Shown here in pieces: positions 8,527 to 31,800 of a DNA stretch of 56,610 nt. The notes beneath the pieces were generated by a model. It was given only the letters and a program-made list of their open reading frames with translations. It was not told where the DNA came from and ran no database searches. Source of the stretch: a bacterium (GTDB taxonomy: Bacteria > Patescibacteriota > Minisyncoccia > UBA9983); assembly GCA_013152035.1 (NCBI GenBank), contig JAADHB010000026.1, forward strand, positions 1 through 56,610, read 5' to 3'. The position numbers and the translations under genes were made by a program. Position 1 is the stretch's first letter, and every line of letters starts with the position of its first letter.

Positions 8527-9300
8527 TCAAACCTTCCTTGAAAGAATGTCTCCTAATTGCTTCACCAACTCGCGCTCCTTCTTGAGCGCGAGTTTGAGAT
8601 TGCGCCTCTCTCTTAACAACGACGCAATCTCTTCGTTTCTCTCTTTAATTTTTTCACTCTCCTTCTTTGTAAGCGCGAGTTTCAACTCGCGCTCGTCCGC
8701 GACGAGCTCTCCCACTTCCTTCCTGAGAAGAAAGGTGGAGAGCCCAAGGAGAATAATTATGAAGATCGCAATAATCGCCGCGATCGCCTCCTTTGCTCTT
8801 CTGTTATAGAGGGTGTCAATTGAGTCTATCCTCACCTTCGCCAGGATTGAATTAAGCCTGGCGTTCTCGGCGGAGAGGGCGCCTAGCCTTTTGTTTGCAT
8901 TCTCAACTTTCCGCAATGGATCACGGAAAGTTGGTCTCAATAATTCCGAGGGAATGAAAATCTCATCCCCGGGATATATCAAGTCCGCTTCCTCCACAGA
9001 AATCCTGTTTGCCTTTACTAGCGCAAACAGGGAACCGACTCCCTTTTTGCAGAATTTCTGGGCGATACCTGAGTAGGTGTCGCCCGGTAAAACGGTTACC
9101 GTTGTCCCGGGTGGGACGACCCCCAGCTCCGCCCTAATGTCGGCGACTGGGGTTCCAAGTTCCGCCTGGATGGCGGAGACTGGTGTCCCGGTGATCTCTG
9201 CCCTGGATGGGACCGCTAGGCAGAGGATAACAAAAGCCAAGATAAACAAAACTGCAAAAATAATCTTGATCATTTCAAAAACATCCCGTTTTTTCTCCAT
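8527..9300 (-). CDS. LysM-domain membrane protein with coiled coils
   Basis: 257 aa. AAGGAGG SD, N-terminal TM, LysM motif (VLPGDTYSGIAQKF...IYPGDEIFIP), a second TM and K/E-rich coiled coils. Confidence 0.75.
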   Translation of the reverse strand: MEKKRDVFEMIKIIFAVLFILAFVILCLAVPSRAEITGTPVSAIQAELGTPVADIRAELGVVPPGTTVTVLPGDTYSGIAQKFCKKGVGSLFALVKANRISVEEADLIYPGDEIFIPSELLRPTFRDPLRKVENANKRLGALSAENARLNSILAKVRIDSIDTLYNRRAKEAIAAIIAIFIIILLGLSTFLLRKEVGELVADERELKLALTKKESEKIKERNEEIASLLRERRNLKLALKKERELVKQLGDILSRKV

Positions 9301-9319
9301 TTTTCTTTCCTCCTTTTCT

Positions 9320-10576
9320 TTACTTTTCTTTCCATTCTTTCACCAACGCCGAGGGCGTTGGTACAATCTCAATTCTCGCTTTTTTCGCGAGTTTTAGGGT
9401 TTTTTGCAAATACTGTTTCCTTTTGCCGGAAACTCTTTTGGATTTCTCCAAAGAGATCACGGCAAGTGCCTCATAAGCATCCCTCCTGAGTTTTTCCGGC
9501 GGTCCGTCTCGGAGCGCCTGAGAGAAATTCAAAAATGCCAAATCTAAAGCGATATTTTTCTCGCTCTCATTCTGACTAACCACAAACAGGGTTAAATAAT
9601 TCCTCCCCTGTTTGTTTCTTAATTCAGCGTTCGCTGGCGAGGCAAATGGACAGGCAAGCAACTTTTGATTTTGCTTGCCAATCTCCTCCCTTATTTTCTC
9701 CAATTCCGTTTTCTCCTTTTTTTCCGGAATTGGTTTAAGGTTGGGCTTTGCAATTTCCAGTTTGGAAACCTTTTGGGCTTTTTTCGGCGCGAACTGCTTA
9801 TTCGCCGCCGCCCAAAAATTATCCGGATCCAGGATTTTTACAAACGCCACCGTCATAGACGGCAGCGTCTGGATTTCGCCCGACCCGGACGAGAATCCGC
9901 CGCCCGGGGAGATATTAGCCCCCCACGGGGTTGAGGCAAAAATCTGGGCGAAGGCGCCAAACAAAGAAAAGGCGCCTGCCTTGTTTTTGAATACATAGTT
10001 GGAGCTTTCATTGATCGGGATGATCAAATCAGCTCCAATATCCATTCCCTTTTGCGAAAGCAGCATGGCAAAGTCCCACTTACTCGGGATTTTGTCCTGC
10101 GCTCCGAGTGACAACACCGCCACCCTGGCGTAATCCCTTCCCTCCGTTAATCCCGGAGGAATTCCAGGGAAAGGAGTGATTTCGGCAGTAGGCGGAAATC
10201 TCTGAAAGACAACCGGGGTGCTTTTTATAGCATCCCCCATTTCCTTCAGAAAGTCCTCGCCTTTCTCGGCAACAACTCCCCCTCGGTAATTCCTAATGAT
10301 CTCCCTCGTAATAACCGAGGGAAGATTGGAAAAAATTACAGAGTTGGGCGTTTCCTTCCGGTACTGCGCCGGCGGAAATTCCGGCGCATTCGGGAACTGT
10401 CCATATGGGAAATTCCCTATGGAACTGATGCTGATGTTATTTTTTTGATTATTGTTAAAAATAACACCCTGAGATAAATTCGTATTCGTTTCGCTGGTGA
10501 CGGTTGTGTCACCGGCGAGAACGAGTCCCGGCGCCAATAAAAGCGCTACTAAGACAAAAAACCAAAGAAATTTCAT
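9320..10576 (-). CDS. Secreted hypothetical protein
   Basis: 418 aa. GGAGGAGG SD. Signal peptide MKFLWFFVLVALLLAPGLVLA. No family recognised. Confidence 0.7.
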   Translation of the reverse strand: MKFLWFFVLVALLLAPGLVLAGDTTVTSETNTNLSQGVIFNNNQKNNISISSIGNFPYGQFPNAPEFPPAQYRKETPNSVIFSNLPSVITREIIRNYRGGVVAEKGEDFLKEMGDAIKSTPVVFQRFPPTAEITPFPGIPPGLTEGRDYARVAVLSLGAQDKIPSKWDFAMLLSQKGMDIGADLIIPINESSNYVFKNKAGAFSLFGAFAQIFASTPWGANISPGGGFSSGSGEIQTLPSMTVAFVKILDPDNFWAAANKQFAPKKAQKVSKLEIAKPNLKPIPEKKEKTELEKIREEIGKQNQKLLACPFASPANAELRNKQGRNYLTLFVVSQNESEKNIALDLAFLNFSQALRDGPPEKLRRDAYEALAVISLEKSKRVSGKRKQYLQKTLKLAKKARIEIVPTPSALVKEWKEK

Positions 10577-10577
10577 C

Positions 10578-10658
10578 CTAACCTCCTCCTTTTTTAAACC
10601 TCGCGAACAAGAAAACCGCGAGGAAAACTGTTAAGACTAAAAAACAGGAAAAACTCAT
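10578..10658 (-). CDS. Candidate 26-aa hydrophobic micropeptide
   Basis: AGAGGAG SD 5 nt upstream of the ATG at 10658. Sequence: MSFSCFLVLTVFLAVFLFARFKKGGG. Its stop codon abuts the SD of the next gene. Confidence 0.3.
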   Translation of the reverse strand: MSFSCFLVLTVFLAVFLFARFKKGGG

Positions 10659-10723
10659 CTGATCTCCTCTTTTGACTCTTTTTGTACCCCCGGAAGCGAG
10701 TAAGTCGCTTCCGGGGAGTTGGT

Positions 10724-11089
10724 TTAATTGTCGCCCGCGCCTCCAATTCCGGACTGCAAACTGTTCCTCAAAAAACTCCCTGAGGACTGATATGCGGTCC
10801 CTCCAGAAATTTCCCAGCTTTGGGACGAACCCTGCCCCAGGAAAGTTTCCCCGGAAAATTCTCCGGATCCGCTGGACCATAAGTGGTTCTCCTGTCCCCC
10901 ACCAGAAACGGAGAGGAACGAATTTCCATCAACAGCAAAACCTCCCAGTTGCCATTGGGAGTAGTCAGACCCCCCGTCGGCAAAGGTAAGACTGCAATTA
11001 GTGCAATCTGGGGACATGGCTTGCGCCGCCCCCATTGAGACAAAAAACATTGCAACTACAAAAAAAACTGCCAATGCAAAAAACTTCAT
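10724..11089 (-). CDS. Small secreted Gly/Ser/Gln-rich protein
   Basis: Start set at ATG 11089 (MKFFALAVFFVVAMFFVSMGAAQA), with a GGAGG SD upstream. The mature part is G/S/Q-rich. Confidence 0.6.
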   Translation of the reverse strand: MKFFALAVFFVVAMFFVSMGAAQAMSPDCTNCSLTFADGGSDYSQWQLGGFAVDGNSFLSVSGGGQENHLWSSGSGEFSGETFLGQGSSQSWEISGGTAYQSSGSFLRNSLQSGIGGAGDN

Positions 11090-11182
11090 CCTACACCTCC
11101 AAATAAAACAAGATAGATTATCAAAGAGCCAAGCTCCGCGTGTATTCATAGCACAAAAAGAGTAGTTGTGTCAATGGCAAAT

Positions 11183-12523
11183 TTATTTTCTTTTTTTGTC
11201 TTTAGTTGCCCGGCGAATTGCGATAATTATGATAACCAACAGGATCAAGAGCAGCCAATTGAAAGCTTTGCCCCATCCTCCGGAAAGTCCGAGGAATGCC
11301 GCCGCGGCGCCCAAAAGTCCGTCCGCTCCACCCGTCTTCGGCTCTCCACCCCCGCTTTCCACATCCTTATTATTATTTTCAGTATTTAAATTTTCCCCGC
11401 CGCCCCCGTTCGCCTCCCCACCCCCGAGAGTTTCTCCGCCCCCCTCGCTTTTTCCGAACGAGTTGTCCGAAGTTTTCGTTCCGTAAGCCAACGCTCCACC
11501 CCCGCTGTTTCCTCCATCCCCGTTCTCCGCTCCACCCTGTTCACCCGCTCCGCCGTTTCCGCCCGAAAACTCCTCCGCCGGCGGGGCGGTGTTTATTATA
11601 AAAGTTTTTTCGTAGCTTATCGTCGGGGGGCTCGCGCGCGAAATAACCCGATATTTGTAAAGCGTATCCGGCGCGAGTCCGGTGAGCGTAACCGAGTGCC
11701 GGGTCACTTTTATTCTGTCTTCGCTCGTTCCGTTCGGATACCCGAAATACGGCGATGTCGCCAGACTGAGCTGGTACGGCCCCTCCGAGGCGATTCCGTA
11801 AATCACTTGGCTTGTTGACAAAATGTTCGTGTCCCAAGTGATGACCGCCGTTCCGAGGGGAGTCGCCGGAGTCGCCGTTTCATTGGCGATTTTCAAATGC
11901 TCAAAAGGTTCAACGGGGCCGTTCGCTCCGCCTCCACCGCCTCCGCCCGTTCCGGGAACGGTTTCTCCCGTTCCGTCCGTTCCGCCGTTATCTCCGCCGC
12001 CCTCGCCTTCTCCGCCTATCTCCGTGTCTCCGCAGCTGGTGTTTCCTCCCTCAAATCCGACGCACAAATCAAAGCCGATCTCACCGTTTTGCGTGGAATC
12101 GTCCGCGTCGGCGCCAAAGGAAACAATAAACGAGTAAACCTCCGTGGCTCCCGCCGGCAACACGGAAAGTTTAACTTCTCCGGCGCGCAGAAAATCTCCG
12201 AGCGTTTTTCCGGAACCGTAAATCTCGCCCGAATCGCCGGAGATGACAAGCTTCAGCGCCTCGCCCAGCCCGCTATCGTCCGACGCGTTTATCGCCTCCG
12301 TGATGACCTGTTGGCTCTCTTCGGAATTGTTCGTAACGGTAACGGTTTTCGTTACTCCGTCTCCGGGAATAATATCCGCCTCGCTGAACAGCGGGTTTGT
12401 TTCAAAGACGACGGCAAGGGGCGGCGTCTCCGACACCGCCAGCGCGGAAGCGATCGGCGCGCCCCACAAAAGAACGGCAAGCAGTAAAATTGTTTTATTG
12501 ATTTTCATTTTCATTATTTTCAT
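11183..12523 (-). CDS. Surface protein: TasA/camelysin-like N-domain, Gly-rich linkers, Fn3-like domain, C-terminal sorting-signal-like anchor
   Basis: Signal peptide MKI(M)KMKINKTILLLAVLLWGAPIASALA. TasA-like motif LFSEADIIPGDGVTKTVTVTNNS. Fn3-like segment ending LYKYRVIS. C-terminus is EPKTGG, then a hydrophobic stretch, then RRATKDKKRK. The start could be 12508, 12514 or 12523. Confidence 0.7.
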   Translation of the reverse strand: MKIMKMKINKTILLLAVLLWGAPIASALAVSETPPLAVVFETNPLFSEADIIPGDGVTKTVTVTNNSEESQQVITEAINASDDSGLGEALKLVISGDSGEIYGSGKTLGDFLRAGEVKLSVLPAGATEVYSFIVSFGADADDSTQNGEIGFDLCVGFEGGNTSCGDTEIGGEGEGGGDNGGTDGTGETVPGTGGGGGGGANGPVEPFEHLKIANETATPATPLGTAVITWDTNILSTSQVIYGIASEGPYQLSLATSPYFGYPNGTSEDRIKVTRHSVTLTGLAPDTLYKYRVISRASPPTISYEKTFIINTAPPAEEFSGGNGGAGEQGGAENGDGGNSGGGALAYGTKTSDNSFGKSEGGGETLGGGEANGGGGENLNTENNNKDVESGGGEPKTGGADGLLGAAAAFLGLSGGWGKAFNWLLLILLVIIIIAIRRATKDKKRK

Positions 12524-14549
12524 CTTCGTTATTATCGCCGCCATCCGGACTGTTCCCCTCACCGCCGGAAGCTAATACAACTTCTTCGTTAACTTCCCGG
12601 GTAATCGCCCCGTTCGCCGCCGCCTGCTCCCCGATACTTGCTTCAGCTTGGTCGGAATTTTCTTGCTGTTCCTCGCTCTCCGCCGCCGCCAAGGCGGAAA
12701 CAATCTCCTTCATCCCGGGCGTTGAACTCGCCGCCGGGGGCGCCAAAACTGTTTCCGGTTCAATAACGATTGTCGGAGGGGTGGTGGTCGCCGCTTCAGG
12801 AGTCGTGGTGGCGAAAAACGGAATTTCCGGGATGGCGGAGCCGATGATTACAATTTTTGGCGTGGTGGTCGCCGGGGTGGAGCTCGCCGAGAATGCCGCC
12901 GGAAATTTCGGAGTGGAGGTGGCGGGAGTGGTGGACGCGGAAACCGCGAACGCCGAGGTTGAAGCCGTTGAGAACGCGGCGTTCACCGAAAACTCAATAA
13001 CCGGAAGGGTCGTGAGGGTCGTGGTCGCCGCCGTTGAGGTGGCGGCAGCCGTTTTAATTTCAATCGCCGGAATGGCCGTGGTCGCCCTTTTCGGCGTGGT
13101 GGTGGCGATTCCGGTCGCGGTGGTCGTGGCGGCTGCCGCCCCGCCTCCGCCGCCGGAATTTTCATCCGAAACAAAGATTGGATTCGGGTCCCAAATGTCG
13201 CCGCTCACCGTCGTGCTGTTAAGCAGCGGATTTTCCGGTCCGGTGGCGGTAAGCTCTATCCAAATGTATCCGGTAAACCCGCTCGGGAGCTTCCACCACT
13301 CCGAGCCGTCGTTCGCCGTCCCCATCACGATATTATGCTTCGTGTCGCCGCCGCTTATTTCGCCATCCCCGTTCACATCCTTTATGTAATACAGGTCAAT
13401 CGCCAAATCCGCGTCGTCGCCGTTCGGGTTCACCGCGGTCCACTGTATTTCATAATTATGATTCCAATACCATGAGTAGCTTTCGTCTTCGTCCGGATAT
13501 ATCAAGTCAACTTCCGGCGGAACAAGCTCTTTCCAGTCGCTCGCTTGGTCGGTGTCGTATCCGTTCGGAACGCGCGCCAGCACATCCCCCTTCGTTACGC
13601 CGGGCACTCCCGGATCCCAAACATTCGTATCCGACTGCCAGTTCATTTCGTCAATGACAACTCCGTCAGGGCGTTTGAGAAAAAGAGCGTCTCCCTCGTT
13701 CGCCAGTCCGTTACCTATTTTGCCGTCAGGAAGAATAATTTTAACAACCTCGCTCGGAACATACCAATACCCCCAAGTCGTGCTTGAGGCGGTGATAACC
13801 CCATACCCCATGGCGGGAATCGGGTCGGAGGCCGGAATAACATCGCATGAATCGCTGTCGCAGATGCTCCAGCCGGAAATGTCCAGTGGAACGCTCGTTT
13901 GGTTGAAAATCTCCACCCACTCGTTATCGCCCTCAACGCCCCGATCCGGAGCGACATCGTAATACACTTTATTTAATCTAAGCCCCCACGAGGAAATCGC
14001 GCTTGAAACTTTTTCCGTGTCGGAAAATCCTCCGTTTTCGTAGGTGGGGTAATTGTGCCTCGTCTGCCAACCGTTATACACGACATCAAAATCGCACACC
14101 TTGTTTTGAAAATTATTCGTTCCCATGCCGATTTCAAAATCCCAGGAATCAAGCGTGGTGGTCGCGCCCGTCAAAAGCCCCTTCAAGCTTCCGGAATACA
14201 TTGACGAGCTCGCTGTTCGCGCGTCAACATTCAAAGCATCGCAGAAATCACCATCGCCGCTGAAATTGGTCGTTGAGGCGTAATACCTGAACGGATTGGA
14301 ATTGTTTTCCGGAAGGATGTCAATGTTTTTCACCGTCGCGTCTCCCGGCTCCAAACTTATGGACGGTTCAATCGGGTTGAAGCCGTTGTCCTTGAGCGAG
14401 AAATCAATCACTCCCGCCTGCATTAAATTCGCTCCGGCGCTTTCGGTGTCGTTGTAAAAAGCGAGTGTCTCGCCAATCGCCAAAATTCCGGAATAATTAA
14501 TTCCGACTATCAACAGGAAAACGATAAATTTTAAGCTAAACTGTTTCAT
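12495..14549 (-). CDS. TasA-like (SipW-type signal) protein fused to a lamin-tail domain, a beta-sandwich domain, a Thr/Ala-rich linker and an acidic tail
   Basis: 684 aa. N-terminus has GETLAFYNDTESAGANLMQAGVIDFSL (SipW-cognate pattern). LTD motif NEWVEIFN...GWSI.D...GDALFLKRPDG. EF-hand/dockerin-like loop DVNGDGEISGGD. Long ATTTP-type low-complexity stretch. D/E/N tail. Confidence 0.75.
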   Translation of the reverse strand: MKQFSLKFIVFLLIVGINYSGILAIGETLAFYNDTESAGANLMQAGVIDFSLKDNGFNPIEPSISLEPGDATVKNIDILPENNSNPFRYYASTTNFSGDGDFCDALNVDARTASSSMYSGSLKGLLTGATTTLDSWDFEIGMGTNNFQNKVCDFDVVYNGWQTRHNYPTYENGGFSDTEKVSSAISSWGLRLNKVYYDVAPDRGVEGDNEWVEIFNQTSVPLDISGWSICDSDSCDVIPASDPIPAMGYGVITASSTTWGYWYVPSEVVKIILPDGKIGNGLANEGDALFLKRPDGVVIDEMNWQSDTNVWDPGVPGVTKGDVLARVPNGYDTDQASDWKELVPPEVDLIYPDEDESYSWYWNHNYEIQWTAVNPNGDDADLAIDLYYIKDVNGDGEISGGDTKHNIVMGTANDGSEWWKLPSGFTGYIWIELTATGPENPLLNSTTVSGDIWDPNPIFVSDENSGGGGGAAAATTTATGIATTTPKRATTAIPAIEIKTAAATSTAATTTLTTLPVIEFSVNAAFSTASTSAFAVSASTTPATSTPKFPAAFSASSTPATTTPKIVIIGSAIPEIPFFATTTPEAATTTPPTIVIEPETVLAPPAASSTPGMKEIVSALAAAESEEQQENSDQAEASIGEQAAANGAITREVNEEVVLASGGEGNSPDGGDNNEDENNENENQ

Positions 14550-15063
14550 TTTTCTTTTTTTCCCTCAACCTCTTCACCTCTTTCCATATTTTCTTGACCT
14601 CGTCGCCGGCGACGGCGAGCGCGGGGACTATTATTATGAGCAGAAATCCAATCGGCTTTTTGGCGAACTCAAGCAGATAACCGAGAAACGGGATGGTGAA
14701 AACTTCCTTGCCTACGATTTCCTTTTCGCGAACCTCTTTCGTGTCCGGGCTTTTGTTGGCGTCCCCTTTCGTTTTGTAAAGCATCTTCCCCTCAACGGCG
14801 CGCGCTTCAATAATCCTGTGCGTCGTCGGAATGTCTTTTTTTGTGTCTTTGCCGAATGTGATGATGTCGCCGATTTTGTAATTGTCCGACGGCTTTATCA
14901 CGACCACGCTCCCCGTTTTTATCGCCGGCTCCATGGACCCCGAAAGCACTATTTTCACCTCGTAATTTCCGGGAATTGGAAAAACAGAAACAGCCAAGAG
15001 GATCGCGACCGAAGCGATTCCGGCAATTAAAATGTAATATGCGGTTTTAAATAATCTATTCAT
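14536..15063 (-). CDS. sipW: Signal peptidase I, archaeal/ER type (SipW-like, S26B)
   Basis: 175 aa. Motifs SGSMEP (catalytic Ser), TTHRI (His) and KGDAN. N- and C-terminal TM helices. Confidence 0.85.
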   Translation of the reverse strand: MNRLFKTAYYILIAGIASVAILLAVSVFPIPGNYEVKIVLSGSMEPAIKTGSVVVIKPSDNYKIGDIITFGKDTKKDIPTTHRIIEARAVEGKMLYKTKGDANKSPDTKEVREKEIVGKEVFTIPFLGYLLEFAKKPIGFLLIIIVPALAVAGDEVKKIWKEVKRLREKKKNETV

Positions 15064-15158
15064 AAAGTCTTTACAACCCCGTCCTGCGTGTCACAAGCGC
15101 GCGGAACAAGGCTAAAAAACTTCAGACTTGCTTAACTTTAATGATTATTTTCTTGTGC

Positions 15159-16271
15159 TTAGTCGCTCTCCCTGTTTGTCAACCTACATGTCAGATTGTC
15201 TCCCGCTTCAAGCGTAATGCTTCCATCACCCTCGCAGTCCAACCCGAATTCTCCGGTAAATCCAAAACCGGTGCTCCCATTATACGTTTCGGAAACGGTG
15301 TAAACACCGGGTGTGAGACCGGATACCGGAACTTCGTCCGTTACGGTTTGACTAACGCTGTCACCGTCGGCCGGTCCGGTGAGAGTAAGCGTAAAATCGC
15401 TTATTGACACCGGTCTGTCATCGGTGGAGAAAATAATCTCCTTGTCAACCGTAATCGTTCCCGTCGTCGGCACGGTTTCCGGCTTACAGACAAAGCCCTC
15501 GTTGTGTCGCGACTGAATGGCTCGGAAACTGACATCCCCCGTCACACTGTCCGTTTGCGTTGAGTTATCCTCTCCGGCGCCATCGCAAGTAAATCCTGGA
15601 TTTACAGTTGGATCATTCTCGTCGCTCTGCGCTACGGGAGTAAGTGCCAGCTTTCCAAAACACCACGCCTTCCCGATATAGAGGGTGGAATCGCCCGGAA
15701 GCGGACCACCGGCGCTATTGGCATTCCAGATATTTGTTTCCGAATCGGCGAGAGGAGCCGTTATCGTCTGCCCCAAACTGAGATCGCCGAGCGCTCCCTG
15801 GTTTATAACGGTCTCGTCGTTCTCAAGAACATTGTCGCCGTCGTCAGCCCACCAGATGAAGTGAATACTGTCCGCCAGTTCACCCCTTCCAGCCGTCCAT
15901 GACGGCTCGTCGTTCAGTTCCGGCTCCGTTGAGCCGTTGTCCTGGTTGCTCGTAAGTGTTACATCGGCGCAAAGATACGCGTCGTTGTTTTTGACATGAA
16001 GCGAAATCGTGTCCTCGCCCCAGTCTCCGGGCTTCAAGTCCCTAAAGTTAAAGAACCAGTCGCCGTCCGTGAGGTCCTTTTCGGACCATGTTGTCCCGCT
16101 ATTTAACACTCCGTTGTAGTAGCTGTCGTTGTCAATTTTCAGGTCAATCGCGCCCGCCGTAAAGGTATTTCCCGTTGACACTTCCGTGTCGGAGAAAATG
16201 GCGGTGGTTGCCCCTATAAGGACAGCGCCAACCACTCCAAGGGTGGCAATGCTTAATAATATTTTTTTCAT
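15159..16271 (-). CDS. TasA/camelysin-family secreted protein with an extra C-terminal Ig-like (prealbumin/Cna-B-like) domain
   Basis: 370 aa. MKKILLSIATLGVVGAVLIGATTAIFSDTEVSTGNTFTAGAIDLKID resembles the TasA N-terminus (GGTWAAFND...FASGTLDL). Also FNFRDLKPGDWGEDTISL. The C-terminus has GVYTVSE. Confidence 0.8.
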   Translation of the reverse strand: MKKILLSIATLGVVGAVLIGATTAIFSDTEVSTGNTFTAGAIDLKIDNDSYYNGVLNSGTTWSEKDLTDGDWFFNFRDLKPGDWGEDTISLHVKNNDAYLCADVTLTSNQDNGSTEPELNDEPSWTAGRGELADSIHFIWWADDGDNVLENDETVINQGALGDLSLGQTITAPLADSETNIWNANSAGGPLPGDSTLYIGKAWCFGKLALTPVAQSDENDPTVNPGFTCDGAGEDNSTQTDSVTGDVSFRAIQSRHNEGFVCKPETVPTTGTITVDKEIIFSTDDRPVSISDFTLTLTGPADGDSVSQTVTDEVPVSGLTPGVYTVSETYNGSTGFGFTGEFGLDCEGDGSITLEAGDNLTCRLTNRESD

Positions 16272-16305
16272 AATTCTGTTGCTAATCCAATAATTAACTC
16301 AGCCC

Positions 16306-17289
16306 TTAGTCTTCAAACGGGGTTGGGTTATTTCTGAGCTGTTCGACCTGGAAAATTAAGTTCGCCGTGTATTCGTCACTCTGAACCTCATTTCCCGTAT
16401 CCAACGGAAGGTCCCAAGCCAAACCGAAGTAATAGGTTGTGCTCCCAACCATTCTTCCGTCTTGCGCGAGGCCTTGGCAGAAGCCATAGTTGTCGCTTCC
16501 GTTTGGGTTTCCCGTGCCTATGCTGGTGTCTGTACAGCTTCGCTCATATTCAGCCGAAAGAACACCACTAAGGTCGTTTGTCAGGTTGCCAATCGTTTCG
16601 CTGTTCCAAAATTTCGGACCTTCGTAGTTCTGGTAGATGTTGTCTCCTTCGGTTGGGTCAACCAGCTGGAGGTCATTTTCCCCAGTGCTGTCATTTTCGT
16701 TGGCATAGACAGGATTTCCGTCCGCGTCTGTGTTTTGAAATCCGGGAATCGCCCCTTGGTCAAGCCATCCCGTGAACAGCAAGTTGTCGTCCATTTCGCC
16801 GTCCCCGTCAGGGCTTTCGCAAGTTTTGTCCAACGCTTCCTCCGCCTGGATTTCAGGAGTCGTGCATGTGTTGTCGGCGTCCCTTGTCGGAAATATTACG
16901 AACCTTCCCCACGCGTCGTTGTCATACACATGAAGCGAAATCGTATCCTCTCCGTGGTCTCCCGGCTTCAAGTCCGTGAAGTTAAAGAACTTCTGAACGC
17001 CGTCCTTAAGATTGGTCTCCGTCCATGTTCCGTTACAATCGCTTCCTTGCGTCGGGAACCCTACGGGTACTCCAAACGCGTCCGTATTGCCGGACGGCTG
17101 CCATCCCCCATCTTCGGTACAAACCATACCGTTGTAGTGCGAAACACTGTCCACCTTCAACTCAATCGCCCCGGCGGTAAAAGTGTTTCCGGTTGATGTC
17201 TCGGTGTCGCCATAAAACGCGCCTGTTGCTCCGGCGACTACCGCGCCGACGATGGCGAGCGTCCCAAGACTTAATAATATCTTTTTCAT
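16306..17289 (-). CDS. TasA/camelysin-family secreted protein (candidate major fibre subunit)
   Basis: 327 aa. N-terminal 45 aa are nearly identical to the paralogue at 15159..16271. Motifs FNFTDLKPGDHGEDTISLHV and a C-terminal NEVQSDEYTANLIFQVEQ, as in the last TasA strand. Confidence 0.8.
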   Translation of the reverse strand: MKKILLSLGTLAIVGAVVAGATGAFYGDTETSTGNTFTAGAIELKVDSVSHYNGMVCTEDGGWQPSGNTDAFGVPVGFPTQGSDCNGTWTETNLKDGVQKFFNFTDLKPGDHGEDTISLHVYDNDAWGRFVIFPTRDADNTCTTPEIQAEEALDKTCESPDGDGEMDDNLLFTGWLDQGAIPGFQNTDADGNPVYANENDSTGENDLQLVDPTEGDNIYQNYEGPKFWNSETIGNLTNDLSGVLSAEYERSCTDTSIGTGNPNGSDNYGFCQGLAQDGRMVGSTTYYFGLAWDLPLDTGNEVQSDEYTANLIFQVEQLRNNPTPFED

Positions 17290-17362
17290 AAATTTATTTT
17301 TGTTTAATTATCTGTTAATTTGACTGATAATCCGCTATCGACCCGCCACTTTTTACGCCAAT

Positions 17363-17410
17363 AATCAAATAAAAAACAACCCACCACGGATAGCCCGCAA
17401 TCGGTTGTTT
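17363..17410 (-). terminator. Putative intrinsic terminator between rseP and the TasA-like operon
   Basis: Minus strand: AAACAACC, 21-nt loop, GGUUGUUU, followed by UUUAUUUGAUU. Confidence 0.4.
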
Positions 17411-17553
17411 ATTCGCCAAGGGTGTTGATTTTCGCGATAATTATTGCCCATAAAAATCTGACCTATTTTTATAGTGATAACTCTATATCCCCGGCGTCAG
17501 TTGTCAAGCGCGAAAAAACATTCGAAATTAAAAAAAACGGCTTGTCAAATGCT

Positions 17554-17579
17554 CTAACGGACACAAAAATGTCCGTTAG
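17554..17579. repeat. Palindrome ctaacggaca-caaaaa-tgtccgttag; first of three GGACAC-AAAA boxes
   Basis: 10-bp arms. Related half-sites are cggacacaaaaag (~17611) and aggacactcaaaac (~17630). Confidence 0.7.
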
Positions 17580-17666
17580 GGTTTCGCGAATAATTTTAAG
17601 GGCTTTCTATCGGACACAAAAAGCTCTAAAGGACACTCAAAACGCGAATTTCCAAAAAACGCAAAC

Positions 17667-22146: not shown

Positions 22147-23439
22147 TTATATCTCCTCCCAGCCCGGCTCAAGTGTTTCTACGTTCAATGGAATGGACAC
22201 GAACCTGTCTATTCCTCCCCCCGTCGCGTTGATTGTGACGATGTAAAGCCCGTTGGGAATACTTCCGTCAACATTCAGACTGAAATCAACACCGCTCGTG
22301 TAATCGTACGGAATGATGCCGTCAGCGGGATTAAAATTACCAACGAAACTGCTTGTCACTTCAATTCCGTTTGAACTGGTCACGCTTCCCAGAGAAAGAG
22401 TAACATCACTGGTGAAATTGACATCACCGGTTATTGAAAGCGTAATTGTGTTTGTGGTAACGCTTCGCCCGCTGACAATGGTCGCGTAAAGCGAACCGCC
22501 CGTATAAGAAACGGTGTAGTCCTGAACGGCGGGACAAGCCACCGCCGTGTCTCCGGCAACATTGGAGTAGCCCGAACTTCCGGCGGCATTATAGGCGTAA
22601 ACCCTGTAGTAATAGTCGCCGGCGGCGATGCCCGTGTCCGTGTAATTTGTTGAGTTGGCGGCAAGATCGGCGACAGTGTCGGGGAAGGTGACGCCGTCCA
22701 CGCCTCTTTCAATTTTATATCCGTCTTCGTTGTCCGCGTTGTCAGTCCACGCCAAAGCGATTGTCTCGCAAGCGCCGCCCGTTCCCGCCAATGCCGTGAG
22801 GCCTGAAGGATCAACGGGGACATTATCGTCAGACTCGCTGTTGTCATTCGGACCGACACAGCCGGGATCGTCCGGGAAGTCAGTTAAAGTGTCTCCATCG
22901 TTGTCTAAGCCGTCAGAACACTCCGGGTTAAGAGAGACGGCGTAACCGGAACCGCTGAAAGAAATCCATCCGACAACATTGGAAGCCCACGCCCAACCGG
23001 AAAAATTACTGGTGCTTTGATTAAATTCAACGCCGTAAGAGCTGCCGTCGCTCGCCGTCCCGGACATGCTAATCCAGCCGTCCCAGCCGCTCGCGGCATC
23101 ACCCGCCACCGCCTTCGCCCATCCGGTGACCGCTCCCGTTGACTTGCTGAGAAAAGCGCCTCCGGGGTTGCCGTCGGGAGCCGTCTCAGCCGTCGGAGCG
23201 AAATCAATCCATCCAATGTTCTCGGACCAAGCGTAACCGGAAAAATCGCCGGTGGCATTATCAATGAAAACTCCTCCGAAATCCGGAGCGAATTGAATCC
23301 AGCCGATTGTGTCCGACCACGCCCAGCCCATCACCGCCTTAGTGGCGGCTTTAACCGCAAAAACCCCGACGAACGCGAAAGCCGCGATTGACAGCGAAAC
23401 AGCGGAAGCGATAAACAGCTTTTTTATTTTTTTATTCAT
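22147..23439 (-). CDS. Secreted/anchored protein: four Trp-rich GW(A)WS..IGWI.F repeats, a Cys-flanked DNDGD motif, an Fn3 domain and an Ig-like domain
   Basis: Start set at ATG 23439 (MNKKIKKLFIASAVSLSIAAFAF). Repeats: GWAWSDTIGWIQF, GYAWSENIGWIDF, SGWDGWISM and GWAWASNVVGWISF. Also CSDGLDNDGDTLTDFPDDPGC, and an Fn3 with YYYRVYAYN. Confidence 0.75.
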   Translation of the reverse strand: MNKKIKKLFIASAVSLSIAAFAFVGVFAVKAATKAVMGWAWSDTIGWIQFAPDFGGVFIDNATGDFSGYAWSENIGWIDFAPTAETAPDGNPGGAFLSKSTGAVTGWAKAVAGDAASGWDGWISMSGTASDGSSYGVEFNQSTSNFSGWAWASNVVGWISFSGSGYAVSLNPECSDGLDNDGDTLTDFPDDPGCVGPNDNSESDDNVPVDPSGLTALAGTGGACETIALAWTDNADNEDGYKIERGVDGVTFPDTVADLAANSTNYTDTGIAAGDYYYRVYAYNAAGSSGYSNVAGDTAVACPAVQDYTVSYTGGSLYATIVSGRSVTTNTITLSITGDVNFTSDVTLSLGSVTSSNGIEVTSSFVGNFNPADGIIPYDYTSGVDFSLNVDGSIPNGLYIVTINATGGGIDRFVSIPLNVETLEPGWEEI

Positions 23440-23504
23440 TACCGTAATTATACAGGAAAAAACCTCGGCAAGAAACCGGGGTGTGGATAACCGCCGGACC
23501 CGCC

Positions 23505-23531
23505 CCACTTGGAGGCCGAGCCTCCAAGTGG
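23505..23531. repeat. Family-1 palindrome (variant loop), 13 nt downstream of a TGTGGATAA box
   Basis: ccacttggagg-ccgag-cctccaagtgg. TGTGGATAA lies at 23482-23490. Confidence 0.85.
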
Positions 23532-23544
23532 TTAGCCGGGCGCC

Positions 23545-23573
23545 TTGCAAAAGGGCGCGATTGGTGATAGTAT
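23545..23573 (+). promoter_or_regulatory. Promoter of rpmE
   Basis: TTGCAA, 17-nt spacer, (TGa)TAGTAT, 9 nt before the ATG at 23583. Confidence 0.5.
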
Positions 23574-24671: not shown

Positions 24672-26090
24672 TTATCGGTTCAAAGTATCTATATCCCTCT
24701 GATATTTTCTGGCGCGCTCAACAACCGGCTCGCCGTATGACATGGTAAAAGTACGCCAACTTCCTCCGGCATAATACTTCGCCGCGGCGCATCTCTCTTG
24801 AAGAAGTTGCTTTGGGGCAAGATAATTGTATTTTTTCGCGTAGGCGCGGCAAGCTCTTGAGCCATAAGCGTCTCTTAAATACGAAGCTGTTCCGGCAAAA
24901 GCGTCATAATTGTTGAACGGCGAAGGCGGGTTGTTTCCCGTTATTTTTGCAACGCGTTTTTTATAGCCGGTCTGCGTTTTAATGTCCCACCAGGTCGTCG
25001 GCATAAACTGCGCCGGGCCCATCGCCCCCCCGTAAGCTCCGTCGGACACAATCGGGCAGGAAACCGGAGTGGTGTTCGGGTCGCGTCCAAGCTCCCTCAT
25101 AATCGCCAAAAAGGAGGGCTTTTGCCTGTTGCTCATCACCGTTCCGCTTCTGTTTCGGCGGGGCTGGTTGTAAAAACACCTCCCTTGGTTGCGGCCGATA
25201 ACGCCGTCAATCGCCGATTCCTGCGCCAGAATGGCGAGAATAAAAGCCGCGCGCATTCCGCTCGCCTTTCCGGCGAATTGGGCGATCTTCACCGCCTCGC
25301 CGAAAGACAACTCCCCTCCCCCGAAGAGGCGGAAAATCCTGCTCCTTATCTCCGCCGCCGTTTTCTTTGTTTTGGCCAACAGCTTCTGGTAGGCGGCCTC
25401 CTGCCCTTTTGTAATCCTCAAAATCCTTTTCTTTTCCGCCGCCATTTTCTCAAGATTCCTTTTTTCAAGTGTTTGTATCGCCCTCAACTGCAGCTCCTCC
25501 GCTTTTTGGTTTTCCAATTCATCCCTTTCTTTCTCTGTTTTTTCTCTGGAATTTTCAATCTGCCTGAAAGAATTCTGCATCGCGAGATGAATTGACTCAA
25601 AAGAATCTTCGTTAACGAAAAAATCGGACAGGTTTTCATATCCGAGCATAAGCTCCACCAGGGAGGTGGAATCAAGTTCGTTTGTTTTTCTTATCAGTTC
25701 TTCCAGCGATCTTTTTTCTCTCCCTATTTTCTTCAGAAGCCCCCCTATCGTCCGCGAGCGGCTTTCAATTCCGCGCGACAATCTTTGTATGCTTAAGTTT
25801 CGGGCGCGGATTCCGAGCTGGACTTTCTTTCTTTTCGCGTCAAGAATGGCGAGATCCCTTTCCAAACTTGACGACTTCATCACATAGCCGCTGATCACGC
25901 CGGACAGTTCGTCCATCTGTTTCTCGATTTCCTTTAATTCGTTTTCGCACTCCACCTGCGAACCGCATTCCGTTTGGGCGCGCGCGGCCCTGAACAAAAA
26001 ACCGCCCCCCGCCAGGAGGAGGATTGAAAACAGTGCGATAAAAATTCGCGAGTAATGCCCCGATTTTTTAATGTTTAAAAATTCAGACAT
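24672..26090 (-). CDS. Membrane-anchored peptidoglycan lytic transglycosylase (MltB/SLT_2-like) with an N-terminal coiled coil
   Basis: 472 aa. TM helix, long coiled coil, ILAQESA catalytic Glu region, and GGAMGPAQFMPTTW. Confidence 0.75.
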   Translation of the reverse strand: MSEFLNIKKSGHYSRIFIALFSILLLAGGGFLFRAARAQTECGSQVECENELKEIEKQMDELSGVISGYVMKSSSLERDLAILDAKRKKVQLGIRARNLSIQRLSRGIESRSRTIGGLLKKIGREKRSLEELIRKTNELDSTSLVELMLGYENLSDFFVNEDSFESIHLAMQNSFRQIENSREKTEKERDELENQKAEELQLRAIQTLEKRNLEKMAAEKKRILRITKGQEAAYQKLLAKTKKTAAEIRSRIFRLFGGGELSFGEAVKIAQFAGKASGMRAAFILAILAQESAIDGVIGRNQGRCFYNQPRRNRSGTVMSNRQKPSFLAIMRELGRDPNTTPVSCPIVSDGAYGGAMGPAQFMPTTWWDIKTQTGYKKRVAKITGNNPPSPFNNYDAFAGTASYLRDAYGSRACRAYAKKYNYLAPKQLLQERCAAAKYYAGGSWRTFTMSYGEPVVERARKYQRDIDTLNR

Positions 26091-28868: not shown

Positions 28869-31800
28869 TCAGTTCTGCTCGCTTGAGGTTACGGTTACCG
28901 TAACGGGAATTGATACCGCTGATTCGTTCTTGGCGGCGTCAACGGCGGAAATGGTGTAAGTGTAAACGGTTGAAGTGGCGAGGTTTGTGTCGGAATATGA
29001 GGTCGTGGCGGTTGTGGCGAGAAGTTTTTCGTCTTTGTATATTCTGTAACCGGACACTCCTATGTTATCCCTGGAGGCGACCCAATTTAAGTTTATTCGC
29101 AATGGCGATGTCGTCGCGATTGCGGTCAAATTCTCAGGAACTGAGGGCGGAATGGTGTCGACCGTATCCGGCGTCGATGCCGCGGCTGAACCGGAATCTC
29201 TGCTAATCCCCGCGTTATCCAAGAGTGTTTTTAGTTCATCCCTGTTAACACAAACATCGTCAATGCATAATTCTTTCTTCACTTCAACCGTATCCACCAC
29301 CAATTTTTTAAGCCGCATGACTCCGTCGGACATGGCGATTCCGAAATTCTTGAATTGATCCAGGAACCAGTCCACTCCTTCGGCAATCGCGTTCGTTCCG
29401 CCGTTGACTGACCCAAGGTTCACGAACACCAGTATCTTCCCTTGTCCGGAACCGTTGAACGGTTCCAGCGCCTTGCCGATTACGGATTCCCCCGCCTCGG
29501 CTTTTTTGCCGACTCCCGAAACACTTGAAAGTGATATCGCGTCCCCCACCTTTATTTCTCCGCCCTCGTCGTTGACTTTTACCGGAACACGACCGGAGAG
29601 AGCCACGGGATATTGGTCCGGCTGAGGATAGTCGTTTTCCATTCCCAAAATAATACCCGGCTTTGTTGAGATGGCGCCGATAATCGCTTCTTTGTTTGAT
29701 TGGGACGCCAAAGTTATTGAACTTCCTCCCGCCGCCGCGATTATGTCACCCGGTTCAAGCGCCTCCGATGAATAATAGATTTCCGCGAGGTCGGTGCTGC
29801 CCGTAGTGTAATCAACGGCGCTCACCCTTCCGGTTGTTGACGCCGTACAACTTCCGTCATTGTCAACGCAAAGTCCTCCATACCCTATCTGGATGCCCGC
29901 CTGCTGAGCCGTTGAGGAAACTCCGATTGTCGTGGTGGCGGTGATCACCGCCTGCCCGGCAACGGATAACTTTGCGTACGGCGAAGTGGAAGCGATGCCG
30001 ACATTACCCGAGGGATCAACCGTAAATAATCCCGCCGCGCTGCTGTCTTGAATCTGAAAAAGATTAGCGGTTTGGCTCGGGTACCCTTGGATAGTTAAAG
30101 GTATGGCGTTTGTGGAAGTGGCCTCTACGCTCAATACCGTATTGGTGAATTGAGTCGTAGTCGCCACGGTCATGGCGCCGGTGGAGAGGATTCTCATTTT
30201 AGAGACGCTGTTGTTTTGCAGATCAAGGAAATTGCCGGTGAAAGAGCCGGAGCCATTGGCGAAATTCATTTTGAGGCCGGTGCCGGTGAAGGCGGAAGTG
30301 TCTTGGGTAAGGTAGGTAAGATTGGAGGAAGTTATTGTGTCTGAAAACAATTTTAAAGAATTACCGGCGGTTGTGCCATTCATATCCCCATACAAAGCGA
30401 CTCCTCCATTTCCGGAGGCGTAAGAATAAACGCCGTAGCCGCTGGAACTGCCGCTCGTTCCGTAAACTCCAATTCCACCGGTACTGCTGCCATAACCATA
30501 AACTCCATACTGGCTTCCTTGCGCATAAGCTCCATAATTAGTATCCGCGCCACTTGCGTAAAAATATCCTCCATAGGCGCGAGAAATTCCCTGTGAAGCT
30601 CCTGCCGCCTTGGCATACATGCCGTAAGTATTGAAAGTTCCGCCGGTGGCGCCGGTTCTGCTCACATTAACATATTGCCCGTAAGTGTTGTCGGTGCCGG
30701 TGGTTACCGCCCCGGTGTCGGAAAAATTAAGATACGAAGCGTATTCGTTCCCCGCGGTCGTATTGGTTGAAGAACGGACGATACCCAAGTTAGCCATTGG
30801 GGTTGTTGAACCGATGCCAACAAAACCGTTGTCCAAAACACTAAACAGCGTAGTGCTCGCGTTGTCCGCCACATTAAACGCCGTCGCTCCGCTCGTTCCA
30901 CTCCCCCAAACTGAGAGTTTGGCGTATGGGGTGGAGGTGCCGATGCCGACATTGTCGGAAGAAGTCGTCAGGCCAACGGTCGTTCCACTGTCAGTCCAGC
31001 CGCCGGCGGCGCTCAGAGAAACGGTTGACCAGGAAAGGGTTCCGGAACCGTCCGTGGAAAGAACTTGTCCGGAGCTTCCGTCGGCTGACGGCCACGCATA
31101 TGTGACTCCGTTCAAAATCGTGCTTCCGGAAACCGTAAGGTTTCCGGAGAAGCTGGCTGAAGTTCCGGTAAGCGCACCCGTAAGCGTTCCGCCGGAGAGA
31201 GGAAGGTAGGAGAGATTAAGTCCGCTTACCGTCCCCGTAAATGTGGTGTTGTTCAATGTGGCTCCCGACAAACTGTCTATTTTTTGAGTGAGCGCGATCG
31301 CCCGGAAATTCGCGGAATTCCCGGAAGCGGCGAAATTTTTCGCCTCTATAATCTGCGCCGTCAGTTTGTTTTTTAGTTTTTGAAGCTCAGCCCTAATTTC
31401 TTCACTGCTCATTCCGCTTACGATTTTCTCAATGGTTTTTTCAACTACGGTTTTTTGAACAACCGGACCTTCTATGACTAAGCCGGCTTTTTTTATTTTT
31501 TCCAGTTCGCCTCTCAAATCGGATAGTTCGCCTTGAAGAAGTTTTGATTGTTTTTGGTTTTCATTTCCGGAAACTTTAGCGCTCTCGCTTTGGAACGCTT
31601 CCACTGAAGCCGCTTTTCCATTGTTATTATTATTGTTGTTTGGTTTTTTCGCCGTTTCACTTTTTCGCGCGGTGTCGTCTTTCTTGCCGCCCGACGGCAG
31701 TATGCTTTTCACACCCCCTGAGATTATTTTGAAAAAACCGGAAACGGCATCCGAAACGGAAGCGGAAAGCCCGCTCGTCACATTCGCCGCGGCGCCGCCC

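Follow-up and report, generated by a model that had tools for sequence, protein, structure and literature searches.

Chaperone-usher pili (Fim/Pap) are built by donor-strand exchange, and their specialized end subunits have no donor strand or are not open to complementation. In the Bacillus cereus group, the sipW-tasA-calY genes encode several TasA-family paralogues together with one SipW and without TapA, and to our knowledge neither a membrane-anchored paralogue lacking the donor strand nor a modular tip protein is found there. For TasA, donor-strand exchange is established, with TapA as donor of the first strand (PMC9674648, PMC10151520), and TasA has been likened to the chaperone-usher pili (PMC10151520). 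The archaeal bundling pili AbpA/AbpB of Pyrobaculum also possess the TasA fold and are donor-strand-complemented (PMC9245690). For Patescibacteria, Wang et al. 2022 mention in one sentence that PF12389 homologues are readily identifiable (PMC9245690), and NCBI names for homologues are 'CalY family protein' or 'SipW-dependent-type signal peptide-containing protein'. The claim of the initial annotation that such a system is undescribed in CPR bacteria was therefore overstated with respect to the presence of the TasA family, whereas for the operon architecture we found no description in the literature.

Gene layout and signal peptidase

The locus described here lies in a 56,610-nucleotide stretch of a Patescibacteriota genome, which as a whole is referred to as the window. 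The initial annotation had placed five co-directional genes between positions 11183 and 17289, and all five are indeed present there as minus-strand ORFs:

16306..17289, minus strand: T1, 327 aa, candidate shaft subunit
15159..16271, minus strand: T2, 370 aa, candidate second subunit, paralogue of T1
14536..15063, minus strand: SipW-like ER/archaeal-type signal peptidase I, 175 aa
12495..14549, minus strand: X, 684 aa, candidate nucleator or tip
11183..12562, minus strand: Y, 459 aa from the first GTG, candidate cell anchor and terminal acceptor
17480..17507, minus strand: sigma-70-like promoter candidate TTGACA-16-TAGAGT, a consensus match only and weak evidence

The five genes are separated by gaps of 34 and 95 nt and joined by two 14-nt overlaps, and for Y a start at 12544 or 12508 is likelier than the first GTG at 12562. 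The promoter candidate is situated about 190 nt upstream of T1, within the 377-nt intergenic region 17290-17666, and an Rfam search of the window gave no regulatory RNA. T1, T2 and X are each listed as 'hypothetical protein' in the record deposited for the window. As T1 homologues are numerous and the gene order is kept in relatives, the five ORFs are real genes and did not arise by chance.

The peptidase had been recognized as an archaeal/ER-type enzyme, and this assignment stands. It scores 121 bits on TIGR02228 (cutoff 51.85) versus 25 on the bacterial-type model TIGR02227 (cutoff 47), and its best solved relatives are SEC11A/C (E 1e-9). The previously quoted motifs SGSMEP, THRI and GDAN are found at residues 41, 81 and 100, align to SEC11A/C and are of the Ser/His type that defines S26B, not of the bacterial Ser/Lys type; TM helices are located at the N- and C-terminus. 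On the SipW equivalog model NF046067, the score of 134.8 is below the cutoff of 190, so that by sequence the enzyme is SipW-like, yet no equivalog of Bacillus SipW.

Donor strands and domains of T1, T2, X and Y

The following segments were assigned within the four other proteins:

17149..17289, minus strand: T1 residues 1-47, signal peptide, T-x-A cleavage motif and donor strand (PF12389/TIGR04088 match)
15165..15464, minus strand: T2 residues 270-369, CnaB/SpaA_2-like domain with a Lys...Glu...Asn triad and two Cys (SpaA_2 E 1e-3)
14037..14459, minus strand: X residues 31-171, donor strand and TasA/CalY-like domain (hhalign against the TasA/CalY family)
13635..13982, minus strand: X residues 190-305, lamin tail domain, Ig-like (PF00932, 38.5 bits, cutoff 34.3)
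12038..12430, minus strand: Y residues 45-175, TasA-like domain homologous to the X N-domain (profile comparison)
11621..11869, minus strand: Y residues 232-314, fn3-like Pur_ac_phosph_N domain (PF16656, 39 bits, cutoff 30)
11216..11272, minus strand: Y residues 431-449, C-terminal TM helix (hydropathy 2.52), followed by RRATKDKKRK

T1 and T2 had been presented as paralogous TasA/camelysin-like proteins. Their paralogy is evident from 45% identity over the first 179 residues (E 2e-39), and the N-terminal pattern KKILLS...GAT.A.F.DTE.STGNTFTAGAI(D/E)LK that had been read from the sequence occurs in both. The likeness to TasA/CalY extends from the signal peptide and its T-x-A motif through the donor strand to the KPGD strand, and is not demonstrable for the rest of the body. 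Both PF12389 and TIGR04088 match T1 at residues 1-47 only, and in T1, T2 and 10 homologues the PF12389 match is limited to profile positions ~4-51 of 196. When the SipW-cognate signal model and PF12389 were run, as the initial annotation had suggested, T2, in which signal and donor strand are as in T1, was above both cutoffs (TIGR04088 27.6 vs 19, PF12389 24.8 vs 22.5), whereas T1 was under both (14.8 vs 19 and 19.3 vs 22.5). The T-family profile matches a TasA/CalY family profile built from Bacillus plasmid genes with hhalign probabilities of 97.6-97.9% (E 4.9e-13) over the first 53-67 columns, a region that comprises the signal, the donor strand and the KPGD strand; with TasA as single sequence against the T profile, only 47 columns were aligned.

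The TasA reference sequence is 100% identical to PDB 8aur and 5of1, and comparison with these structures shows that mature TasA starts at A28. By alignment to this mature end, cleavage is predicted after A24 in T1 (GATGA↓FYGD) and likewise after A24 in T2, and after A30 in X (ETLA↓FYND), the arrow marking the cut. The conserved donor-strand segment of T1 comprises residues 25-47, and an alignment of homologues shows T22, D28, E30, S32, N35, F37, G40, L44 and D47 to be invariant; beyond the cut, over 20 positions are invariant or nearly so across the T family. The donor motif in T and X was judged from alignments; regular expressions were too strict for reliable counts. In the AF2 monomer model of T1 (pLDDT 80.7), residues 17-39 are disordered (<50), which is expected for this conserved N-terminal segment if the strand pairs with another subunit.

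The bodies of T1 and T2 are a different matter. Without the N-terminus, the T body did not match TasA, X-N or Y-N significantly in profile comparison, the probability against the TasA profile being 13-23%, and the best local alignments of the body alone always fell on the last two strands. The TasA-like last-strand motif noted at the outset is common to the locus and B. subtilis TasA. Neither T2 nor the T profile matched any PDB sequence. The T1 body is a Cys-rich beta-sandwich, and the top Foldseek match of its model is the TasA fibre 8aur_A, a weak match (E 6.1e-3, probability 0.75, TM 0.22/0.30) in a search that gave no match at E<=1e-3 and TM-scores of 0.2-0.3; after TasA, lectin/CBM-type beta-sandwiches such as Epa1 and CBMs follow. 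The body of T2 is more compact than that of T1, its model is poor (pLDDT 68) with TasA outside the top 50 Foldseek matches, and it is informative for the CnaB-like C-domain only. AbpA was not among the Foldseek matches of either model. Full-length homology of T1 and T2 to TasA was not found, and their bodies are not demonstrably TasA jelly-rolls. The CnaB/prealbumin-like C-domain of T2 matches Gram-positive adhesins and pilins in Foldseek (5u6f at E 4e-6, also PitA, Spy0128, GBS52, RrgB and BcpA). Its K...E...N triad positions are conserved in 8 homologues, a CnaB-like domain was found in 40 T ORFs from 33 loci, and the domain may be stabilized by an isopeptide bond.

X begins with a SipW-type signal and a donor strand, which lead into a mini TasA/CalY-like domain and the lamin-tail domain; a further beta domain follows, and the protein ends in an Ala/Thr-rich stalk (465-640) with an acidic tail behind it. 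Its signal and donor motif are of the same type as those of T (hhalign 97.7%), in agreement with the signal type first proposed for it. The N-domain of X aligns with the TasA/CalY family across 136 columns (probability 96.3%, E 1.5e-9), spanning columns 23-193 of the 197 in the family profile, and homology searches with this domain, either as single sequence or as a 24-sequence profile, returned 4-5 proteins.

Y begins with an ordinary A-x-A signal peptide, followed by a mini TasA-like domain, a Gly-rich linker, the fn3-like domain, a Gly-rich region, the TM helix and a basic tail. A TasA-like N-domain had been ascribed to Y from the start, and this could be substantiated by hhalign, which gave 97.1% (E 6.6e-11) against X-N and 86.7% (E 4.4e-6) against the TasA family, the latter over columns 35-186 and hence beginning just past the donor strand. 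No donor motif was found in the Y-family N-termini inspected, which carry ordinary signal peptides. As single sequences, X-N and Y-N are below Pfam significance, and their TasA assignment is made at the profile level; we have moderate confidence in the link of Y to TasA, which rests partly on transitivity via X. On these profile comparisons, the real full-length TasA-like domains of the locus are the N-domains of X and Y, not the T bodies. A C-terminal TM helix is present in 19/27 members of the Y family, and in two Y homologues only (L015 and L028) it is replaced by an LPATG or LPGTG sorting signal.

Distribution and gene order in Patescibacteria

T1 has 2590 database homologues and matches 4064 clusters (50% identity, E<=1e-3), and its relatives are present in 398 species-representative genomes. 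The operon occurs in hundreds of species-level genomes, in both the Parcubacteria and the Microgenomates groups. Named Patescibacteria lineages, again with both groups included, account for 63 of the 80 nearest species-level loci, and the CPR-type host that had been assumed thus agrees with an overwhelmingly Patescibacterial system. The peptidase is present in 71 of these 80 loci, with one to four T copies upstream of it. For 52 loci the sequence continues downstream for 4.5 kb or more, and in 44 of these the peptidase is followed by a gene of the X and/or Y type; 17 have exactly the arrangement T(n)-S-X-Y, and 8 of the 52 show neither X nor Y, so that these two are not strictly required. The suggested survey of synteny therefore yielded a recurring order of T(1-4 copies), peptidase, X and Y, which dozens of Patescibacteria lineages have kept. 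At least six genomes encode peptidase and X as a single fused ORF, whose topology brings the cleavage motif next to the catalytic domain. None of the operon's neighbours in the window recurs in the 80 related loci, so that the surrounding context is not conserved.

A proposed cell-anchored fibre and its alternatives

Based on this sequence evidence, we consider it rather probable that Patescibacteria possess a lineage-wide operon for a TasA/CalY-type extracellular fibre that assembles by donor-strand exchange and whose added modules would make it a cell-anchored pilus. T1, T2 and X would be exported via Sec and cut by the operon's own SipW-like peptidase at T-x-A↓[FA][FY]xD(T)E, which would expose an N-terminal strand of ~20 residues. 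This strand would enter the beta-sandwich of a neighbouring subunit, and T1 and T2 are therefore proposed to form the shaft, which T2 would decorate with its possibly isopeptide-stabilized CnaB-like domain. X combines a donor strand and a small TasA-like domain with adhesin-type modules (lamin-tail, Ig-like, Ala/Thr-rich stalk), and as it would supply the first or distal strand, like TapA for TasA, it is proposed to reside at the tip, although it would lie within the shaft if it could accept a strand as well. Y, without a donor strand, could only accept one, and the chain is therefore proposed to end with it at the cell surface, where Y would be held by its C-terminal membrane anchor or, in some lineages, by a sortase signal. 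The predicted layout is membrane-Y<=T<=T...<=X, and such a fibre may serve attachment to hosts or other surfaces. The shaft, tip and anchor architecture envisaged in the initial annotation is reasonable in view of the C-terminal membrane anchor of Y.

As in B. subtilis tapA-sipW-tasA, a dedicated ER/archaeal-type peptidase is encoded alongside its predicted substrates, starts and stops of genes overlap around the peptidase (PMC10151520), an accessory protein has a donor-like N-terminus, and the T-x-A↓AF.D cleavage and donor-strand motif, the KPGD strand and the last-strand motif are found in common with TasA. In contrast to B. subtilis, the T paralogues number two to four, are much larger, contain Cys-rich insertions and have bodies that are not detectably TasA-like, and there are an additional donor-less TasA-family paralogue, Y, with membrane anchor or LPXTG, adhesin modules on X, the gene order T-T-S-X-Y, a peptidase below the SipW equivalog cutoff, and no TapA homologue. 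With a TapA sequence checked against PDB 6qay, hhalign of the X-N, Y-N and T profiles gave probabilities of 0.1-4.6%, the T-x-A↓AF.D.E motif being all that they have in common with TapA; at 0.5% for X, a TapA homology of X was rejected. Of the tapA-sipW-tasA-like set that had been claimed, the SipW-like peptidase and the TasA-type features hence remain, but not TapA, X and Y being TasA-family paralogues. As to the B. cereus system, the CalY/TasA family profile built from plasmid copies matches X-N at full length, whereas the Bacillus proteins are ~197-aa, single-domain proteins. The archaeal bundling pili likewise have a multi-domain accessory protein, proposed as assembly initiator and adhesin, but their operon has no dedicated peptidase (PMC9245690). 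Sortase-assembled Gram-positive pili resemble the proposed fibre in tip adhesin, repeating shaft and cell-fixed basal subunit, in the CnaB-type domain (T2) and in the LPXTG of some Y homologues, and differ from it in that strand exchange is predicted to be non-covalent and the window contains neither a sortase nor a pilin LPXTG. Chaperone-usher pili are made of unrelated proteins, and the diderm chaperone and usher on which they depend are missing here.

The proteins could alternatively be monomeric secreted or surface proteins (adhesins, lectin-like or envelope proteins) that share only a SipW-type signal and a conserved N-terminal recognition segment, are cut by the dedicated peptidase and do not polymerize, which we regard as unlikely, though clearly deserving attention. 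Such a reading would accommodate the confinement of the database-model similarity between T1/T2 and TasA to the first ~50 residues, the T bodies that are not significantly TasA-like, the lectin/CBM-type sandwiches that follow TasA among the T1 fold matches, and the adhesin modules typical of X (LTD), Y (fn3) and T2 (CnaB). However, the conserved stretch continues for over 20 residues beyond the cut and specifically matches the TasA donor strand, and X-N and Y-N are full-length TasA-family domains. The donor-bearing proteins are consistently paired with one donor-less anchored paralogue, which is hard to explain without strand exchange.

The CnaB match of the T2 C-domain to Gram-positive pilins and adhesins with its K/E/N triad, together with the LPATG or LPGTG of two Y homologues, would also suit a SpaA-like covalent pilus assembled by sortase, with T2 and its relatives as pilins and Y as wall-linked basal pilin. 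We hold this to be highly improbable, as there is no LPXTG in T1, T2, X and Y of the window, the sortase motif TLxTC is absent from all ORFs of the 56.6-kb window, and the enzyme of the operon is a signal peptidase and no sortase. It is, if anything, even less probable that T1 and T2 are secreted metalloproteases of the camelysin type (Peptidase_M73), as the name of the Pfam family suggests: HExxH is absent from T1, T2, X and Y, the PF12389 match covers signal and donor strand only, and TasA itself was solved as a fibre subunit (PMC9674648). Both readings were rejected on these motifs. The locus might finally be foreign to a CPR genome, through recent transfer or as a contaminant from a Firmicute or an archaeon, and three related loci indeed bear archaeal and nine proteobacterial labels. 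Yet it lies mid-contig amid the bacterial housekeeping genes rseP, frr, a holB-like gene, tRNA-Thr, tsf, rpsB, mreB, PBP2 and dnaK, GC content and strand bias are uniform over the window, the Bacillus TasA/CalY proteins are only distant relatives, and named Patescibacteria predominate among the nearest loci. The 'Nanoarchaeia' contig L034 encodes GatA, GatB and a family-A DNA polymerase and is therefore bacterial, making an occurrence in DPANN archaea doubtful, and a foreign origin appears extremely improbable.

Beyond type IV pili, it is largely unknown how CPR bacteria attach to their hosts. As a tentative extension of the donor-strand-exchange model, for which we see some but clearly less than even support, Patescibacteria may carry a third kind of monoderm pilus besides type IV and sortase pili, a TasA-type fibre that grows tip-first from X, is anchored by Y and explains some of the host-contact filaments. 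This idea is directly testable, because Paceibacteria-methanogen enrichments and co-cultures already show uncharacterized extracellular material at contact sites (PMC10936435). If it is true, some of the filaments or extracellular material where ultra-small episymbionts meet their hosts would be a TasA-type fibre, and an anchored donor-less acceptor such as Y would be a new way of attaching such fibres to cells. If the model holds, TasA-type donor-strand exchange would extend from matrix fibres to anchored pili, the donor-less tethered paralogue would be a candidate for an anchoring mechanism that is not defined for Bacillus TasA, and a testable, widespread surface organelle would be added to the biology of CPR bacteria.

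Gene order and genomic setting of the operon

The five co-directional genes reported in the initial annotation were all recovered, as tightly packed minus-strand ORFs at these positions:

Genes of the operon (all on the minus strand)
16306-17289, minus: T1, candidate shaft subunit, ORF of 327 aa
15159-16271, minus: T2, candidate shaft subunit, ORF of 370 aa
14536-15063, minus: S, peptidase, ORF of 175 aa
12495-14549, minus: X, candidate nucleator or tip protein, ORF of 684 aa
11183-12562, minus: Y, candidate cell anchor and terminal acceptor, 459 aa counted from the first GTG

In this order they are separated by 34 nt, 95 nt and a 14-nt overlap, with a second 14-nt overlap if Y starts at 12508. 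T1 and T2 are paralogous as judged by their alignment (45% identity across 179 residues, E 2e-39), and T1 is preceded by a 377-nt intergenic region that contains a single sigma-70-like site. The deposited record annotates T1, T2 and X as 'hypothetical protein' and S as 'signal peptidase I'.

The neighbouring bacterial housekeeping genes encode an M50 site-2 protease, RRF, a pol III delta'-like protein and tRNA-Thr, and EF-Ts, S2, MreB, PBP2, DnaK, several aminoacyl-tRNA synthetases and GatB are also found around the locus. As these surroundings are bacterial, the GC content of the window is even and the minus strand carries nearly every gene, the locus is integral to this genome, whose CPR assignment is taken from the nearest relatives of the operon proteins. 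Across the window (1-56610) the cumulative GC skew drops monotonically and long ORFs are nearly all on the minus strand, so that the whole contig lies within one replichore with strongly co-oriented genes. Two class IIb (Asp/Lys/Asn-type) aminoacyl-tRNA synthetase genes together with GatB (988-2457, 39079-40500, 32466-33941) suggest indirect tRNA amidation. Three large ORFs at 28869-32381 (1170 aa), 22147-23550 (467 aa) and 24672-26090 (472 aa) had no Pfam match at E<=1e-5. Directly downstream of the operon (8527-11149), three more secreted-looking genes follow on the same strand, which have no counterpart among the 80 related loci described below:

10724-11149, minus: secreted-looking gene, 141 aa, no Pfam match
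9320-10576, minus: secreted-looking gene, 418 aa, no Pfam match
8527-9300, minus: secreted-looking gene with a LysM domain

The peptidase and its candidate substrates

The operon very probably encodes a SipW-type peptidase together with TasA-family substrates. S scores 121 bits with TIGR02228 (cutoff 51.85), 25 with the bacterial-type signal peptidase model (cutoff 47) and 134.8 with the Bacillus SipW equivalog, which is under the cutoff of 190. Its best solved relatives are human SEC11A/C, with which SGSMEP, HR and GD.N align, and by these matches S is an ER/archaeal-type signal peptidase, as had been claimed.

The TasA-likeness that had been proposed for T1 and T2 holds for the signal, the cleavage motif, the donor strand (the conserved N-terminal segment after the cut) and the KPGD strand, but the evidence for it is weak in the body, the protein minus this N-terminus. 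T2 lies above the cutoffs of the SipW-cognate signal model (27.6 versus 19) and of PF12389 (24.8 versus 22.5), and T1 under both. In T1, T2 and ten homologues, PF12389 is matched only at profile positions ~4-51 of 196, which comprise the signal peptide and first strand. For direct comparison, a TasA/CalY profile was built from B. subtilis TasA (100% identical to PDB 8aur and 5of1, mature chain beginning at A28) and eight Bacillus genes from plasmids that carry a TasA or CalY annotation. T-family profiles match it with 97.6-97.9% probability (E 4.9e-13) over only 53-67 columns, which run from the signal through the T-x-A cleavage motif and donor strand to the KPGD strand. The T body alone reaches 13-23%, and each time the last two strands give its best local alignment; in a relaxed alignment the KPGD and '...GN..Q...F..Q' motifs are collinear. 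The AF2 model of T1 (pLDDT 80.7, pTM 0.77) is nearly all beta, with the conserved residues 17-39 disordered in the monomer; the T2 model is weaker (pLDDT 68). A PDB fold search with T1 gave no match at E<=1e-3, and its top match is the TasA fibre 8aur, a weak one (E 6e-3, probability 0.75, TM 0.22/0.30). The modelled T bodies are thus beta-sandwiches that may be elaborated TasA folds. An inserted DUF642 (galactose-binding-like) domain occurs in some T-family members (P0114, 483 aa), so the T body tolerates lectin-type insertions.

T2 ends in a further domain:

15165-15464, minus: CnaB/prealbumin-like domain of T2, residues 270-369

These last 100 residues can confidently be predicted to form a CnaB/prealbumin-type domain, the fold matches being Gram-positive adhesins and pilins (5u6f, E 4e-6; PitA, Spy0128, GBS52, RrgB, BcpA). 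A Lys (TITVDK), Glu (YTVSE) and Asn (RLTN) triad is kept in eight homologues. The domain also has two Cys, and at the level of sequence the pattern is similar to the intramolecular isopeptide triad known from pilin domains of Gram-positive bacteria. The CnaB-like domain is present in 40 T genes across 33 related loci.

By profile comparison, the clear TasA-family domains of the operon are the N-domains of X and of Y. In X, residues 19-55 correspond to the signal and donor segment of the T proteins (97.7%), and residues ~32-171 match the TasA/CalY profile (96.3%, E 1.5e-9) over its whole length (columns 23-193 of 197). After this domain come a lamin-tail domain that scores above the PF00932 cutoff, a further beta domain and ~175 residues rich in Ala and Thr, and the protein ends in an acidic tail. 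X was also considered as a TapA homologue and rejected (0.5% probability, with a TapA sequence checked against PDB 6qay). The Y N-domain matches both the X N-domain (97.1%, E 6.6e-11) and TasA/CalY (86.7%, E 4.4e-6), the latter from column 35 on, just past the donor strand. In Y, the ordinary A-x-A type signal peptide is separated by just ~6 residues from the first strand of the body. Further along are an fn3-like domain and Gly-rich linkers, and the C-terminal TM helix is followed by a basic tail.

Distribution and variants among related loci

T1 has 2590 homologues in a database clustered at 90% identity; those with names belong to MAGs of Parcubacteria, Pacebacteria, Sungbacteria and Nomurabacteria. 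A profile search of 1.84 billion representatives yielded 4064 clusters at E<=1e-3, 2025 at 1e-10 and 719 at 1e-30. T1 relatives are encoded in 398 stretches of GTDB species representatives, and the best 80 of these (handles L0xx) bear Patescibacteria-type names in 63 cases, from both Parcubacteria and Microgenomates groups; the others are five without a name, nine with proteobacterial labels from third-party bins and three labelled archaeal. Of these 80 loci, 71 contain S, preceded by one to four T genes, usually two or three, and the operon genes share a strand in every locus except one. As the genes flanking the operon in the window have no counterpart in any of these loci, the operon behaves as a cassette. 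Where 4.5 kb or more of sequence lies past S (52 loci), HMM searches gave these arrangements:

Arrangement after the T genes (loci of 52)
S, X with donor, Y without donor: 17
S, Y: 13
S, X: 6
S fused to X: 5
S, Y, Y: 2
S fused to a Y-like domain: 1
S only: 8

Taxon labels of third-party bins are unreliable, and several look wrong here. L034 ('Nanoarchaeia', DATBWR010000011.1) carries genes for GatA and GatB and for a family-A DNA polymerase with 3'-5' exonuclease, and by these features it is bacterial. The labels of the two other loci assigned to archaea, L031 and L080, also look wrong, as do those of nine bins with a CPR-type operon (L008, L015, L022, L025, L026, L027, L054, L057, L059) that are assigned to Gammaproteobacteria, Bdellovibrionales, Desulfobacterales or Pseudomonadales.

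S and X are joined into a single ORF in at least six genomes. The peptidase domain is followed there by a TM helix, a basic linker and an additional TM helix, and then by the 'GGTVS|YFNDTE' donor motif and the TasA-like domain. Enzyme and substrate are fused in this ORF, with a predicted topology that brings the cleavage site to the same side of the membrane as the catalytic domain. In two Y homologues (L015:7218-8327, L028:5144-6595) an LPATG or LPGTG sorting signal replaces the plain TM anchor, and in these lineages the base protein may be covalently attached to the cell wall. In six Microgenomates-type loci the peptidase is followed by a gene whose product has a donor-less TasA-like N-domain, RTX/GGxGxD calcium-binding repeats at the end and a Cys-containing C-terminus, with no TM anchor.

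Variant genes in related loci
S::X fusions: L009:14843-16684; L012:13410-14969; L046:10138-11685; L052:13737-15188; L060:14773-16338; L075:14247-15800
RTX-ending Y-like genes: L030:12370-13401; L036:12420-13520; L054:11614-12645; L064:4421-5446; L066:12274-13299; L034:12084-13220

The initial annotation had presented a system of this kind in CPR bacteria as new, which was overstated. PF12389 homologues are readily identifiable in Patescibacteria (Wang et al. 2022, PMC9245690), and some T1 homologues are already named 'CalY family protein' or 'SipW-dependent-type signal peptide-containing protein' by NCBI models. Full-text searches found nothing else relevant linking SipW/TasA-type systems to CPR, and no description of the conserved T(n)-S-X-Y architecture, a donor-less anchored paralogue, a modular tip protein, S::X fusions or CnaB-decorated subunits.

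A proposed strand-exchanged fibre

In the TasA fibre, the N-terminal strand (residues 28-38 onward) completes the next subunit's sheet, and TapA is thought to provide the first strand (PMC9674648, PMC10151520). Placed by alignment to the TasA cut between A27 and A28, S would cleave T1 and T2 after A24 (GAT.A|[FI][YF].D) and X after A30 (ETLA|FYND). In the predicted motif, T at -3 and A at -1 vary little or not at all, and at least 20 conserved residues follow the cut, far beyond what a signal peptidase needs. This conservation and the disorder in the monomer model fit a donor strand. T1, T2 and X would be able to donate a strand, whereas Y would only accept one while tethered to the cell. The resulting topology would be membrane-Y<=T...T<=X regardless of the kinetic order, with the adhesin-like modules of X distal. 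We think it somewhat probable that such a strand-exchanged fibre is formed. The proposed layout resembles the tip/shaft/base logic of sortase pili, and its predicted terminal subunits resemble the end subunits of chaperone-usher pili.

The products could instead be monomeric surface adhesins processed by S, which the weak evidence for a TasA-like T body favours, but the donor strand is conserved and a donor-less anchored paralogue, Y, exists, which makes this rather unlikely. A sortase pilus is highly improbable, as the window has neither LPXTG nor sortase. A metalloprotease is barely credible, as there is no HExxH motif, and equally little credence is due to a foreign contig, against which both the genomic context and the phylogenetic spread of the operon speak.

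For the fibre with Y at the base and X at the tip, host attachment would be a plausible role. In Paceibacteria-methanogen enrichments there is unexplained extracellular material where cells touch, and secreted Ig-like and galactose-binding-fold proteins are highly expressed (PMC10936435). Such enrichments offer a system in which the fibre idea can be tested.
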